From assembly GCA_902795275.1 (NCBI GenBank), contig CADBKQ010000003.1, forward strand, positions 69,912-133,911: a stretch of DNA of 64,000 bases, read 5' to 3'. Source of the DNA: an uncultured Eubacteriales bacterium. Lineage in GTDB: Bacteria > Bacillota > Clostridia > Christensenellales > Aristaeellaceae. A program made the translations under genes and the position numbers. The first letter of the stretch is position 1, and every line of letters begins with the position of its first letter. The notes below the pieces were generated by a model. The model was not told where the DNA came from and ran no database searches. It saw only the letters and a program-made list of their open reading frames with translations. This document shows positions 35,928-38,904 of the stretch, one piece after another.

Positions 35928-37256
35928 ATGAAACTGGTGTACGACATTGCCGACAAACCGCCCATCAGAAAAAACCTGATCTACGCCTTCCAGCAGCTGC
36001 TGGCGATCATGGCCGCCACCCTGCTGGTGCCCATCCTGGTGGACGGCACCGGGACATACATGAGCCAGCCTGCCGCCCTGTGCGGCGCGGGTTTCGGCAC
36101 GCTGTTCTATCTCTTTATCGCCACCAAGAAAAAGAGCCCCGTGTTCCTGGGTTCTTCCTTCGCCTTCATCAGCCCGCTGGCGGGCGCCGTGGCCTTCGGC
36201 TTCCTGGGCATCTTCCTGGGCGCCGTGTTCGCGGGCCTGGTGTACGTGATCATCGCGCTGATCATTAAAAAGACCGGCTCCGAATGGGTCAACAAGCTGC
36301 TGCCCCCCGTGGTCATCGGCCCCACCGTGGCCCTGATCGGATTGTCCCTGTGCGGTAGCGCGGTGAACAACATCAACAACACCGCCGCCGGCAGCTACAA
36401 CCTGGTGGCCATCCTGGTGGGCGTGATCGCCTTCATCATCACCGTGTTCGCCTCCACCAAGGGCGGCAAGGGCATGAAGATGATCCCCTTCATCATCGGT
36501 ATCCTGGGCGCTTACATCGTGGCCCTGACCTTCACCTTCATCGGCAACGCCGCCAACATCGACGCCCTGAAGCTGGTGAACCTGGCTGCCTTTGACAACA
36601 TGCAGATCTTCAAGGTGCCGCGCTTCACGTTCCTTGGCATCTTCGGCGCGTATCCCGAAGCCACCAACGCCATCGGCTCCTTCGCCGACGTGATCAGCAT
36701 CCTGGTGCTGTTCGCCCCCGTGGCCTTCGTCACCCTGGCCGAACACATCGCCGACCATAAGAACCTGAGCACCATCATCAACCGCGACCTGATCACCGAC
36801 CCGGGCCTGGACAAGACCCTCATCGGCGACGGCGTGGGCTCCATCGTGGGCTCCTTCTTCGGCGGCTGCCCCAACACCACCTACGGCGAATCCGTCGGCT
36901 GCGTGGCCATCACCGGCAACGCCTCCATCAGCACCATCGCCATCGCCGCGGTGTACTGCATCATCCTCAGCTTCTTCGATCCCTTCGTGTGCTTCGTGAA
37001 CTCCATTCCCTCCTGCATCGTGGGCGGCGTGTGCATCGCCCTGTACGGCTTCATCGCCGTGAGCGGCCTCAAGATGCTCCAGCCCGTTGACCTGAACGAC
37101 AACCGCAACCTGTTCGTCGTGGCGGCCATCCTGGTGCCCGGCATCGGCGGCCTGACGCTGAACTTCTCCCACATCACCATCTCCTCCATCGCCACCGGCC
37201 TCATCCTGGGCATCCTCATCAACGTGATCTTCAATAAACGCGAAGCCGCTAAATAA
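35928..37256 (+). CDS. pyrP: Uracil permease (NCS2/SLC23 family)
   Basis: MKLVYDIADKPPIRKNLIYAFQQLLAIMAATLLVP start with a GGGGGA RBS. Polytopic, xanthine/uracil permease-like, with a PyrR leader upstream. Confidence 0.85.
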   Translation: MKLVYDIADKPPIRKNLIYAFQQLLAIMAATLLVPILVDGTGTYMSQPAALCGAGFGTLFYLFIATKKKSPVFLGSSFAFISPLAGAVAFGFLGIFLGAVFAGLVYVIIALIIKKTGSEWVNKLLPPVVIGPTVALIGLSLCGSAVNNINNTAAGSYNLVAILVGVIAFIITVFASTKGGKGMKMIPFIIGILGAYIVALTFTFIGNAANIDALKLVNLAAFDNMQIFKVPRFTFLGIFGAYPEATNAIGSFADVISILVLFAPVAFVTLAEHIADHKNLSTIINRDLITDPGLDKTLIGDGVGSIVGSFFGGCPNTTYGESVGCVAITGNASISTIAIAAVYCIILSFFDPFVCFVNSIPSCIVGGVCIALYGFIAVSGLKMLQPVDLNDNRNLFVVAAILVPGIGGLTLNFSHITISSIATGLILGILINVIFNKREAAK

Positions 37257-37272
37257 TAGATTGTACAGTAGC

Positions 37273-37306
37273 AAGCCCGCCGGCTGACCCGGCGGGCTTG
37301 TTGTTG
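37273..37306 (+). terminator. Terminator after pyrP
   Basis: aagcccgccgg-ctgac-ccggcgggctt (an 11-bp stem) followed by gttgttgt. Confidence 0.7.
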
Positions 37307-37339
37307 TCTGGATGTGTTTACAGGCATTTTGTAAGCGTT

Positions 37340-37785
37340 TAATATTTTACAAAGGGTTACGTTGGGGCCTCCGCGGCCCCAAACCCGCGCCAGGACGGTG
37401 ACCGCCCTGGACCCACATTTGCGGATGTTGCTTGCATTGCTGACTGAGCATGGTTCCCGCTGCTGCGCGGAGGAACGAGGAAGATTGGATTGGTCGCGTT
37501 GTGCTTCTGGCCCGGCGGACGAACCGCCGATGACCGCCAGTGGCGGGAATCTCATCGGCGGTGAGATCAGGCGAAACGAGCAATGTCCGCTGTGCAGCAT
37601 CCGGGAAAGCCTGGGAATAATCCCCGGGGAAAAGCGAGCTTTTCCCCATGGGATTTTCCCGGCTTTCTTGGGCCAGAAGCCCTCAAACTTTCGTAAACCC
37701 CAGCGCGGCAGGCGGAGGCTGTCGGTTTCTTCCAACGGCGCAATATCGCCAGGTGCGGGTCCAGGGTACTCAGTACCCTGGTGGG
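37340..37785 (-). other. Heavily base-paired non-coding region, a candidate unclassified structured RNA (strand tentative)
   Basis: It lies between convergent genes and no frame is plausibly coding. Perfect local hairpins occur at 37364-37380, 37513-37529, 37525-37560 (nested), 37626-37647 and 37761-37781. A 10-bp long-range pair joins gcttctggcc (37503-37512) with ggccagaagc (37671-37680). The stem at 37390-37410 has a G-U pair only on the minus strand. Confidence 0.3.
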
Positions 37786-37827
37786 GTGCGGGGCAAAGCC
37801 CCGCCGGTCCCTTTACCCTTCACAGGA

Positions 37828-38904
37828 CTACATCACAACCTTGTCCCGGCCGGTGATCTTGCCCATATACAGCTTTTTATCGGCAAGAGCGAGGATATCC
37901 TCCATCGGGGAACGGAAATCGTTTTCCTCGATCCCGATGGTAATCGTAATGGAAAACTCATTTTCTTCATATTTGAGGGGCATTTTTTTCACGGCGCTGT
38001 TCAGGTCAAACATGACGTTCCAGGCCTGGTCGATATTTTTCCCCGGCAGGAAGAAGCAAAACTCCTCGCCGCCCCAGCGGCACACGATGTAATCCTGGCC
38101 CGCGTTTTTGCGGAACAGCTCGGCCAGGGTTTTCAGCGTATAGTCGCCGCAGTTGTGGCCGTAGGTATCATTGACTTTCTTGAAGAAGTCAATGTCCGCG
38201 ATGGCAACGCAGAAAGGCTCCTCCGGATTGGTTTTCCGAAACTGTTCTATCGTGTTGATCATGGCGCGGCGGTTCGGCAGCTGGGTCAGCGGATCGGTGC
38301 CCGCTTCCTTATGCAGTTCCTGATTATCCAGGCGCAGCTTGCGTTCCGTATCCTGAATGCTGGAGCTGAACAGGATGGCGTCTGCCGCCAGGATACCGAA
38401 CAGGGTGATGCTGTTGACCGTCTGGGCCACAATGCCCGCCGTATGCCCCAGAGTATAAACCGGCACGGCGTTCATCGAGCGCGAGAACAGCACCATCCGG
38501 AACGCGAAGAGCGCGGCGCACATGGCGATTTTGAACCAGGGCGGATTAAAGATATTGAAGAACACCAGCAGCACAACCGGCAGCAGCAGCAGATGGCCGC
38601 TGTAATGCCAGCCCAAAAACTCATTGTGCCACCAGCACCAGGCAATGCTGATTGCGGCGTAAGCGACGCTGTTGATCCGGGCGTTCATCTTGTGCCCGTT
38701 CAGCAGGACAACAATCGTGACCACGAAAAAGGCGACCGGCTCCCAATCCCACTGATGGGCCGAAATGCCGATCAGCGCAAAGCACACAACAAAATAAAAG
38801 CTCAGCAGCATTTCATTGAAAGCCAGCGCATTGCGGTAATACGCAGGCATTTCCGTGCCGGACGCAGGTGTCTTTTGATGTAAGAATGCAAGAAATTGCT
38901 TCAC
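37828..38904 (-). CDS. Membrane-anchored diguanylate cyclase (GGDEF)
   Basis: 358-aa ORF with an N-terminal block of about 6 TM helices, then DPLTQLPNRR...RWGGEEFCFF (GGEEF). Confidence 0.88.
   Translation of the reverse strand: MKQFLAFLHQKTPASGTEMPAYYRNALAFNEMLLSFYFVVCFALIGISAHQWDWEPVAFFVVTIVVLLNGHKMNARINSVAYAAISIAWCWWHNEFLGWHYSGHLLLLPVVLLVFFNIFNPPWFKIAMCAALFAFRMVLFSRSMNAVPVYTLGHTAGIVAQTVNSITLFGILAADAILFSSSIQDTERKLRLDNQELHKEAGTDPLTQLPNRRAMINTIEQFRKTNPEEPFCVAIADIDFFKKVNDTYGHNCGDYTLKTLAELFRKNAGQDYIVCRWGGEEFCFFLPGKNIDQAWNVMFDLNSAVKKMPLKYEENEFSITITIGIEENDFRSPMEDILALADKKLYMGKITGRDKVVM

Follow-up and report, generated by a model that had tools for sequence, protein, structure and literature searches.

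What fills the long, heavily base-paired gap between two convergent genes, pyrP on the plus strand and a GGDEF gene on the minus strand, in the 64,000-nt stretch of DNA analysed here (the window), and is it the gene of a discrete large structured RNA, as a preliminary description of the letters proposed? Searching the genome to which the window belongs (G000; 3.12 Mb in 58 contigs, 95% complete), we find that the gap is one copy of an interspersed repeat of about 465 nt. We consider it probable, at roughly 0.8, that this repeat is a non-coding, non-autonomous mobile element of the kind represented by MITEs (miniature transposable elements with inverted repeats) and bacterial interspersed mosaic elements (BIMEs), resembling the former in its inverted ends and the latter in its mosaic make-up. 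The proposed RNA gene is not supported, in view of the observations that the repeat is multi-copy and has inverted ends, that the orthologous site is empty in a relative, that copies stand in both orientations, that the two strands fold symmetrically, and that loops flip between copies.

The search of the own genome returned 74 BLAST matches, which group into 42-45 loci and include about 14 near-full copies at 72-83% identity as well as many partial ones. Along the window, coverage by other genomic copies (25-35 of them) increases at about 37350-37364 and drops at about 37814. A canonical clean copy of 465 nt lies at G000:C11:25521-25985, where the C number denotes the contig. With about 45 loci in its own genome and variable presence at orthologous sites, the element is multi-copy and dispersed in the manner of a MITE, and it is also non-coding and shorter than about 800 bp, as MITEs are. 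Its modules occur singly and in both orientations as well, which gives it the extragenic palindrome-mosaic character of repetitive extragenic palindromes (REPs) and BIMEs. A minimal version of 100 nt, consisting of two termini and one hairpin, is found at G000:C4:214374-214473.

Comparison with relatives (G004, G013, G017, and G023; all the genomes, the own one included, are metagenome-assembled genomes, or MAGs, where repeats and insertion sequences often fail to be assembled) shows the repeat to vary in presence. The site of the window copy is empty in G004, where 71 nt separate the convergent genes versus the window's 571 nt, the CTACATCAC gene end is shared and the repeat absent, and one hairpin terminator is the sole structure between the two genes. 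The repeat of the window lies between this terminator, which serves both convergent genes in G004, and the stop codon of the GGDEF gene. In G017, the closest relative (95% identity in pyrP), a copy is present at the same place, and the contig ends within that copy. Elsewhere, the copy on C5 is absent in five relatives, including G017 (about 92% identical over the joined flanks), and looks lineage-specific; G004 and G013 lack the C1 copy, G017 lacks that at C26:6344, and two G013 copies are not present in G023 or G017, so that empty sites in relatives are known for at least six copies.

Both ends of a copy have the same hairpin layout when read from the outside in, and each is an inverted repeat of roughly 90 nt built of two hairpins. 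The ends align inversely over about 65-90 nt, with the termini TAACAG..TGTGAAGGG and CCCTTCACA..CTGTTA, an arrangement that corresponds to the terminal inverted repeats of MITEs; accordingly, the right end of the window copy (query 445-505) matches inversely at the left ends of other copies. The outermost part reads TAACAG-N6-TGTGAAGGG(TAACG) and is followed inward by hairpin 1 (GGGGCC..GGCCCC or GGGGC..GCCCC) and ACCCCGCACCAGG, and then by hairpin 2 (CCAGG, a variable palindromic tip, CCTGG) and ACCCGCA. The terminal motif TAACAG-N6-TGTGAAGGG is kept in relatives, where it occurs 21 times in G013 and 14 times in G023. Between the ends lies a core in which a near-invariant helix of 11 bp, GCTTCTGGCCC/GGGCCAGAAGC, closes three hairpins: GGCGGC-GAA-GCCGCC (a), CCGGATGC-NNN-GCATCCGG (b), and a 63-nt palindrome. 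Since the ends are inverted around this hairpin core, the element folds as one long branched hairpin on either strand. Hairpin tips and ends come in several interchangeable variants that are differently combined among copies.

This architecture accounts for much of the pairing that first drew attention to the gap. Folded as RNA, positions 37310-37827 reach -267.3 kcal/mol on the plus strand against -208.7 +/- 7.5 in shuffles (z -7.82) and -244.8 kcal/mol on the minus strand against -194.0 +/- 6.5 (z -7.85), and no shuffle equals the real gap on either strand. The preliminary description was therefore right to call the base pairing exceptional, with z about -7.8 on both strands, and an inverted-repeat search recovers every helix that it listed, among them TTGGGGCC/GGCCCCAA at 37362-37382, cggcgg/ccgccg at 37513-37529, ACCGCCGATGA/TCATCGGCGGT at 37523-37562 (enclosing ccgcc-agt-ggcgg), GGGAATAATCCCCGGGGAAAAGC/GCTTTTCCCCATGGGATTTTCCC at 37613-37660, and CCAGGGTACT/AGTACCCTGG at 37761-37781. 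The long-range pair that it reported exists as well, at 37503-37513 and 37670-37680, with a length of 11 bp rather than 10. Because the element has inverted ends and a core, the long-range helices are explained as the inverted ends pairing with each other and as the helix that closes the core.

Evolution has maintained the pairing itself. An RNAalifold consensus of 36 copies from several species contains 98 pairs, and 97.6% of its cells form standard pairs. Changes on both sides of a pair are seen in 26 pairs and 182 cells, compared with 16.5 +/- 1.9 pairs and 55 +/- 7 cells in column shuffles, a level that none of 500 shuffles reaches (the copies are related, so these shuffle statistics overstate independence), and they fall to 6-9 pairs when the partners are slid by 1-3 columns. 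Pairing is thus conserved, with compensatory changes in excess of both controls; such covariation indicates conserved structure and leaves hairpins of RNA and of DNA undistinguished. Most of it falls in the hairpin tips and the terminal hairpins, and hairpin b and the 11-bp helix of the core hardly vary. In the core-closing helix (helix 6), seven of the 11 pairs never vary and 99% of the cells are paired in the 36 copies. The internal core is conserved better than the ends.

The structure does not favor one strand in the way expected of an RNA. Across 56 copies the consensus energy is -269 on the plus versus -275 on the minus strand, with 450 versus 461 G-U cells, and we find neither an asymmetry of G-U pairs nor a fixed orientation to genes. 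Loops occur as exact reverse complements of one another (TTT/AAA 24:13, GTTCAC/GTGAAC 9:4, and GTAAAC/GTTTAC 4:4), the pattern that a flipping DNA palindrome would leave. Tips of the hairpins are perfectly palindromic about a single central base (GGTGACC, GATCATC, ACTCAGT, and CCTCAGG) and form alternative cassettes. That both strands fold equally well, that loops flip, and that tips are palindromic argues against a constraint of the kind acting on an RNA made from one strand and points to palindromes at the level of DNA, not to a dedicated RNA. The A-C mismatch on the plus strand of the stem at 37390-37410, which had been taken to favor weakly a minus-strand RNA because it reads as a G-U pair there, is confirmed; this mutation, on which the argument for a minus-strand RNA rests, is confined to two copies of the own genome (those of the window and of C5), the hairpin being a perfect palindrome in most copies.

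Copies are placed at the 3' ends of genes, in either orientation. Based on gene calls from our own codon-usage method, which are approximate (2,401 genes, 85% coding), 43 of 45 loci are intergenic and classifiable, and four more overlap a called gene by more than 60 nt. The 43 loci comprise 15 convergent, 26 tandem, and 2 divergent spacers, compared with 14%, 72%, and 14% of all spacers, respectively. Within the tandem contexts, 11 copies are oriented with the genes and 15 against them. Inspection of the flanks shows several copies either between a stop codon and a terminator or directly after the T-run of a terminator. At the window site, the nearest canonical terminator for the GGDEF gene is now about 520 nt downstream, and a search of the element's minus strand found no terminator-like site; judging from this position, the minus-strand version is probably carried as a structured 3' untranslated region (UTR) of roughly 0.5 kb in the GGDEF mRNA.

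Complete copies have TA at either boundary (TA-ACAG...CTGT-TA) and no direct repeat beyond it, and these terminal letters suggest insertion at TA, being compatible with a TA target without proving one. Against a mobile element of MITE/BIME kind there are several observations to be weighed. Six pairs of filled and empty sites show a few extra bases on both sides, from which no target duplication can be read, and the flanking TA is not separable from the inverted repeat because TA is itself palindromic. Neither the own genome nor about 110 fetched loci contain paired ends 0.6-10 kb apart; all 75 paired ends in this set lie 255-554 nt apart, and hence no autonomous version is seen, although assembly into MAGs may have dropped it. 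The IS630-like and IS66-like genes of the own genome have ends unrelated to the repeat. The copies of the own genome share at most about 84% identity overall, and a recent burst does not appear evident here from their sequences. The compensatory changes would fit a constraint at the RNA level as well, and single-copy folds favor the plus strand by 4 kcal/mol on average, 36 of 56 copies being more stable there. Finally, a core better conserved than the ends is unusual for a MITE and suggests that the core has a function of its own. On the other side, self-templating of palindromes or exchange between copies could give the appearance of compensatory changes with no selection at the RNA level, and the short segments of 93-98% identity found within the otherwise divergent copies, along with the exchangeable hairpin variants, suggest that such exchange is frequent.

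Taking the conserved core as the starting point, one may suppose that it is the recognition structure, as single-stranded DNA or RNA, of an unrecognised recombinase or host factor, in which case the family and the second repeat nested in it (the B module, described below) would represent a new class of hairpin-guided mobile elements and not a MITE mobilised by a DDE transposase. We regard this as unlikely.

It is likewise improbable, in our judgement, that the copies form a family of structured non-coding RNAs, either small RNA genes or cis-acting 3'-UTR elements, whose core is a functional RNA and whose copies spread because they are useful to their neighbours, for instance by acting as a barrier to exonucleases or a platform to which proteins bind. 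The very strong folding excess, the conserved pairing with compensatory changes well above both controls, a core helix and junction that are nearly invariant across species, the slight energy advantage of the plus strand, and the location at gene 3' ends would all suit such a family, and some copies would have to be transcribed, as they lie between a stop codon and a terminator. However, the copies stand in both orientations relative to the upstream gene (11 vs 15), the consensus structure is equally good on both strands, the loops are exact reverse complements, and terminal inverted repeats combine with presence/absence polymorphism; moreover, the family has no conserved promoter or terminator of its own. 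Neither is there an Rfam relative. At gathering thresholds the whole window yields one match, a tRNA elsewhere, and no family in the gap; at E<=10 the gap yields generic hairpin (microRNA-precursor) matches on both strands, far under threshold, and nothing else, and a copy with the full nested insert behaves likewise, so that the earlier failure to assign the gap to a known class is borne out for Rfam at both gathering and permissive thresholds. The repeat shares with OLE, ROOL, GOLLD, raiA, and HEARO/IS605 omega RNA a length of several hundred nt and many conserved helices, and with HEARO also its multiple copies and its tie to mobile DNA. Unlike these RNAs, it lacks an Rfam match even at permissive thresholds, strand asymmetry, and an adjacent TnpB/IscB-type gene, it occurs in both gene orientations, and its loops flip.

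Improbable, too, in our view, is transposition through hairpin-recognising enzymes acting on single-stranded DNA, of the REP/BIME-RAYT or IS200/IS605 (PATE) type, with the hairpins as enzyme substrates. The palindromic units with covarying stems, the mosaic of modules in both orientations, and the location outside genes are what this would predict; the B module fits as well, with no inverted ends, hairpins close to either end, and GG ahead of every insertion, and Y1 transposase genes are present in 15 of 39 genomes of the genus. Nevertheless, no Y1_Tnp (PF01797) match is found in the own genome, 95% complete as it is, or in other rich carriers such as G013, G017, and G023, and none of the 19 Y1 loci of the genus is flanked by the repeat or the B module, the sole match being a stray end fragment 1.1 kb from one of the genes, so that a RAYT/IS200 partner was rejected. 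In addition, the main element has clear inverted ends of 90 nt, and reading of the aligned ends, without a dedicated scan, revealed no GTAG head of REP type. Two further candidate partners were discarded. IS630, considered for its TA target, is represented by DDE_3 genes in 6 of 39 genus genomes, none of them flanked by the ends of the repeat, and IS66, suggested by a GTAAGCG in the left end of the window copy, is represented in the genome by a fragment with unrelated ends. The two genes concerned in the own genome are an IS630-like (DDE_3) transposase gene of lower G+C at a contig start (G000:C43:1-1500) and a partial IS66 transposase at the end of C13.

That the gap is a decayed protein-coding gene or a gene for a small protein is very improbable, for although open frames of 100 and 164 codons overlap it, these have no Pfam match, several frames are open simultaneously on both strands across the copies, the longest open frame over the family measures 125 codons at the median versus 110 in dinucleotide shuffles, about what composition predicts, and indels between copies are not in multiples of three, in agreement with the earlier view that the gap is non-coding.

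The window copy can be followed part by part. Its two neighbours are as the preliminary description had read them: the upstream gene, pyrP, ends at 37256 and matches Xan_ur_permease (E 2.9e-65), which makes it a permease of uracil/xanthine type, and the downstream gene matches the GGDEF domain (E 3.1e-34) and has its stop codon at 37828-37830. The hairpin terminator of pyrP (37265..37307, plus strand; inverted repeat I2) lies outside the repeat, as the G004 comparison shows. The whole copy, about 511 nt with its nested insert, spans 37317..37827 according to BLAST coverage, the aligned termini, and the G004 comparison, and so extends from just past the T-run of the terminator to the base that precedes the GGDEF stop codon. 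It begins with a degenerate left terminus, TTTACAG..TGTAAGCG (37317..37361, plus strand), which fits the consensus TAACAG-N6-TGTGAAGGG, aligns with the orthologous G017 copy, and precedes a second, partial occurrence of the motif (ACAAAGGGTTACG), so that the terminus is partly duplicated. A sigma-70-like match, TTTACA-17-TAATAT, occurs at this terminus (37317-37346, plus strand) and points inward; its -10 part falls in the duplicated stretch specific to the window copy, and it is therefore not a feature of the family. Left-end hairpin 1 (GGGGCC-TCCGC-GGCCCC, 37364..37380), the helix 1 of the family, shows compensatory GC/AU changes. Next come the 5' arm of the helix that joins the inverted ends, ACCCGCGCCAGG (37383..37394; I10), whose partner is 37749-37760, and left-end hairpin 2, CCAGGACGG-TGA-CCGCCCTGG (37390..37410), in which the CCAGG/CCTGG base is conserved and the palindromic tip varies and which, as helix 4, shows changes on both sides in six of nine pairs. 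A less conserved left internal arm with a GCGG...CCGC helix, delimited from the alignments (37411..37502), leads to the core.

The 5' strand of the core-closing helix, GCTTCTGGCCC (I8, helix 6), occupies 37503..37513 and its 3' strand, GGGCCAGAAGC, 37670..37680. Within this helix, comparison of copies places a nested, 3'-truncated B module (37519..37595, plus strand) inside core hairpin a. It is followed by a leftover 3' arm of hairpin b, GCATCCGGG (37597..37605), where canonical copies read CCGGATGC-NNN-GCATCCGG; the 5' arm is missing from the window copy because the deletion beside the insert removed it. The central 63-nt palindrome, GAAAGCCTGGGAATAATCCCCGGGGAAAAGC-GA-GCTTTTCCCCATGGGATTTTCCCGGCTTTC (37605..37667; I1, I9; helices 9-11), matches itself in reverse orientation by BLAST. 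Beyond the core lie the right internal arm (37681..37748) with GGCG...CGCC and GCTGTCGG/CCAACGGC helices (helices 12-14), the 3' arm of the helix joining the inverted ends, CCAGGTGCGGGT (37749..37760; I10), and right-end hairpin 2, CCAGGGTAC-TCA-GTACCCTGG (37761..37781; I12, helix 15), three tip pairs of which are changed on both sides in 16-21 of 36 copies. Right-end hairpin 1, GCGGGGC-AAA-GCCCCGC (37788..37804; helix 16 of the alignment), precedes the right terminus, ..CCCTTCACAGGA (37805..37827), which abuts the GGDEF stop codon, may be compared with the C23 copy CCCTTCACACCATCGCTGTTA, and is without the outermost 12 nt or so (..CTGTTA) present in complete copies.

The B module is a second, unrelated repeat of roughly 110 nt. 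Copies free of it read CCCGGCGGCGAAGCCGCC at the site, and the full insert of about 110 nt is found in the copies at C11:40924, C33:4560, and C5:98672. In the window copy and in that at C26:64941, a deletion after the insert, about 60 nt in the window copy, took the 3' part of the B module together with the 5' arm of hairpin b. The GGCGG arm that was left orphaned finds a partner in the insert's 5' end (ACGAACCGCC), whose bases also serve the module's own stem ACCGCCGATGA/TCATCGGCGGT. The helices at 37513-37560 that had been described as mutually exclusive alternative structures do overlap; they do so because the B module inserted into core hairpin a, which makes the alternation a by-product of a second repeat.

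The layout of the B module is GGACGAACCGCCGATGA..TCATCGGCGGTGAGATCAGCCGAAAC..GTCCGC-TGT-GCGGAC..CGATTGAGGCTGCGGAA, with full copies, for example, at G000:C2:67040-67150, C11:41090-41230, and C31:5651-5760. It has no inverted ends, carries hairpins near both ends, and is always inserted after GG. Compensatory changes are seen in all four of its stems (CAGCC/GGCTG, CAGGC/GCCTG, CATCC/GGATG, and CGACC/GGTCG), its unpaired CGAAAC and CGATTGAG are conserved, and parts of it are 96-97% identical in other species of the genus. Searches of the B module against Rfam and of the Y1 transposase loci gave no match and no link. A likeness to the hammerhead ribozyme (CCGAUGA ... GAA, CGAAAC, CGAUUGAG) was rejected on inspection, with the GAUGA taken up in pairing, a stem lacking, and none of Rfam's ribozyme models matching. 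About 12 more B modules lie outside full main elements, some beside fragments of the main element and some in another repeat family. The latter, often the host of such modules, is a third palindromic family (..TTTCTCGGAAGGGG .. GGGGAACCGCTCTTTGG-N-CCAAAGAGCGGTTCCCCCC..), seen at G000:C2:67000-67200, C26:94150-94330, and C31:5620-5800 and also, outside the window, at G000:C3:35050-35140. Mutual insertion in this genome thus involves at least three families of repeats.

The main family is widespread within the genus. It occurs in 21 of 24 sampled genus genomes, often with dozens of matches, and an exact 21-mer of its core is present in more than 100 contigs from MAGs of uncultured rumen Clostridia/Clostridiales, among them RUG, RGIG, and one with the label Christensenellaceae. 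Searches of 199 further genomes of the same order, covering 118 genera, did not find the core, and plasmid and phage collections gave no match. In one IMG/VR contig of 4.3 kb that is classed as viral (IMGVR_UViG_3300028591_007245:1793-2143), a 350-nt copy stands between two long open frames; this contig does not represent an autonomous element and may be either a phage vehicle or a piece of bacterial DNA that was misclassified. We did not find the family described in the literature searched. Many MAG contigs start or end 60-300 nt inside a copy (contig starts of G013, G023:C53, and G017:C194), and the repeat is a frequent cause of assembly breaks in these genomes. In G013, more than 15 copies share the identical terminus AACAGTCATGTTGTGAAGGG, which suggests recent activity in that genome. 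Contig starts of G013 just inside the terminus, considered as a possible sign of a longer element, turned out to be ordinary copies cut by the assembler.

We therefore return to a non-autonomous mobile repeat of MITE/BIME kind and propose the following course of events. The element would have inserted into an AT-rich spacer bounded by the shared terminator and the stop codon of the GGDEF gene, spacer targets presumably being AT-rich, in a movement catalysed in trans by some transposase. This insertion may predate the split from G017. The G017 copy (G017:C136), compared with window positions 37317-37380, has a different variant of left hairpin 1, GGCGGGGCGTTGCCCCGC and not GGGGCCTCCGCGGCCCC, a difference that reflects either cassette exchange after insertion or independent insertions at one site. 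Subsequently, the copy would have been hit by the B module, with deletion of part of the core. Hairpin variants would be exchanged between copies, and the structure would be upheld at the level of DNA palindromes or single-stranded hairpins. In its 3'-UTR form the element may, at most, act as a barrier or stabiliser, like REP-like elements.

Bacterial MITEs include Correia/NEMIS of Neisseria, ERIC/IRU of enterobacteria, and QMITE of Coxiella. The present repeat is like them in being small, non-coding, multi-copy, intergenic, and variable at orthologous sites, in terminal inverted repeats that give a long stem-loop transcript, and in variants with internal inserts, as in ERIC. It differs in its larger size (about 465 nt) and GC-richness, in inverted ends about 90 nt long, each composed of two hairpins whose tips are exchangeable, in a three-hairpin core better conserved than the ends, and in that a target duplication and a parent insertion sequence were not found. 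With REP/BIME/REPIN systems and their RAYTs it shares extragenic palindromes, mosaics in both orientations, enrichment downstream of genes, and covarying stems, but no RAYT (Y1) gene was found in this genome, no GTAG head was noticed, its units are far more complex than the 20-40-nt REP, and the whole has defined inverted ends. In bacterial MITEs, small repeats are nested by insertion, transcripts form stable stem-loops, and direct repeats decay over time, and the pneumococcal BOX, RUP, and SPRITE repeats are modular, insert into one another, and cluster intergenically (PMC10969869). Our repeat resembles the latter three in modular composition, mutual insertion, and intergenic clustering; its sequences and host are unrelated to theirs, and the modules of BOX do not form one large branched palindrome.

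These findings remove a false lead for a new large structured RNA and attribute much of the excess structure in this and similar gaps to repeats, that is, to inverted ends that pair, nested palindromes, and insertions of one repeat into another. In the genomes searched, the family is restricted to one genus of uncultured rumen Clostridia; as it is genus-restricted and breaks MAG assemblies at its copies, its annotation would improve both gene calling and the interpretation of assemblies. The invariant internal junction, the cassette-like hairpin tips, and the failure to find a partner enzyme make the family a useful case for how repeats move and persist, and a B module that covaries and yet has no inverted ends is unusual as well. 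Locally, the repeat parts the GGDEF gene from the terminator that it shares with pyrP in G004 and may thereby alter the 3' end of the GGDEF gene.

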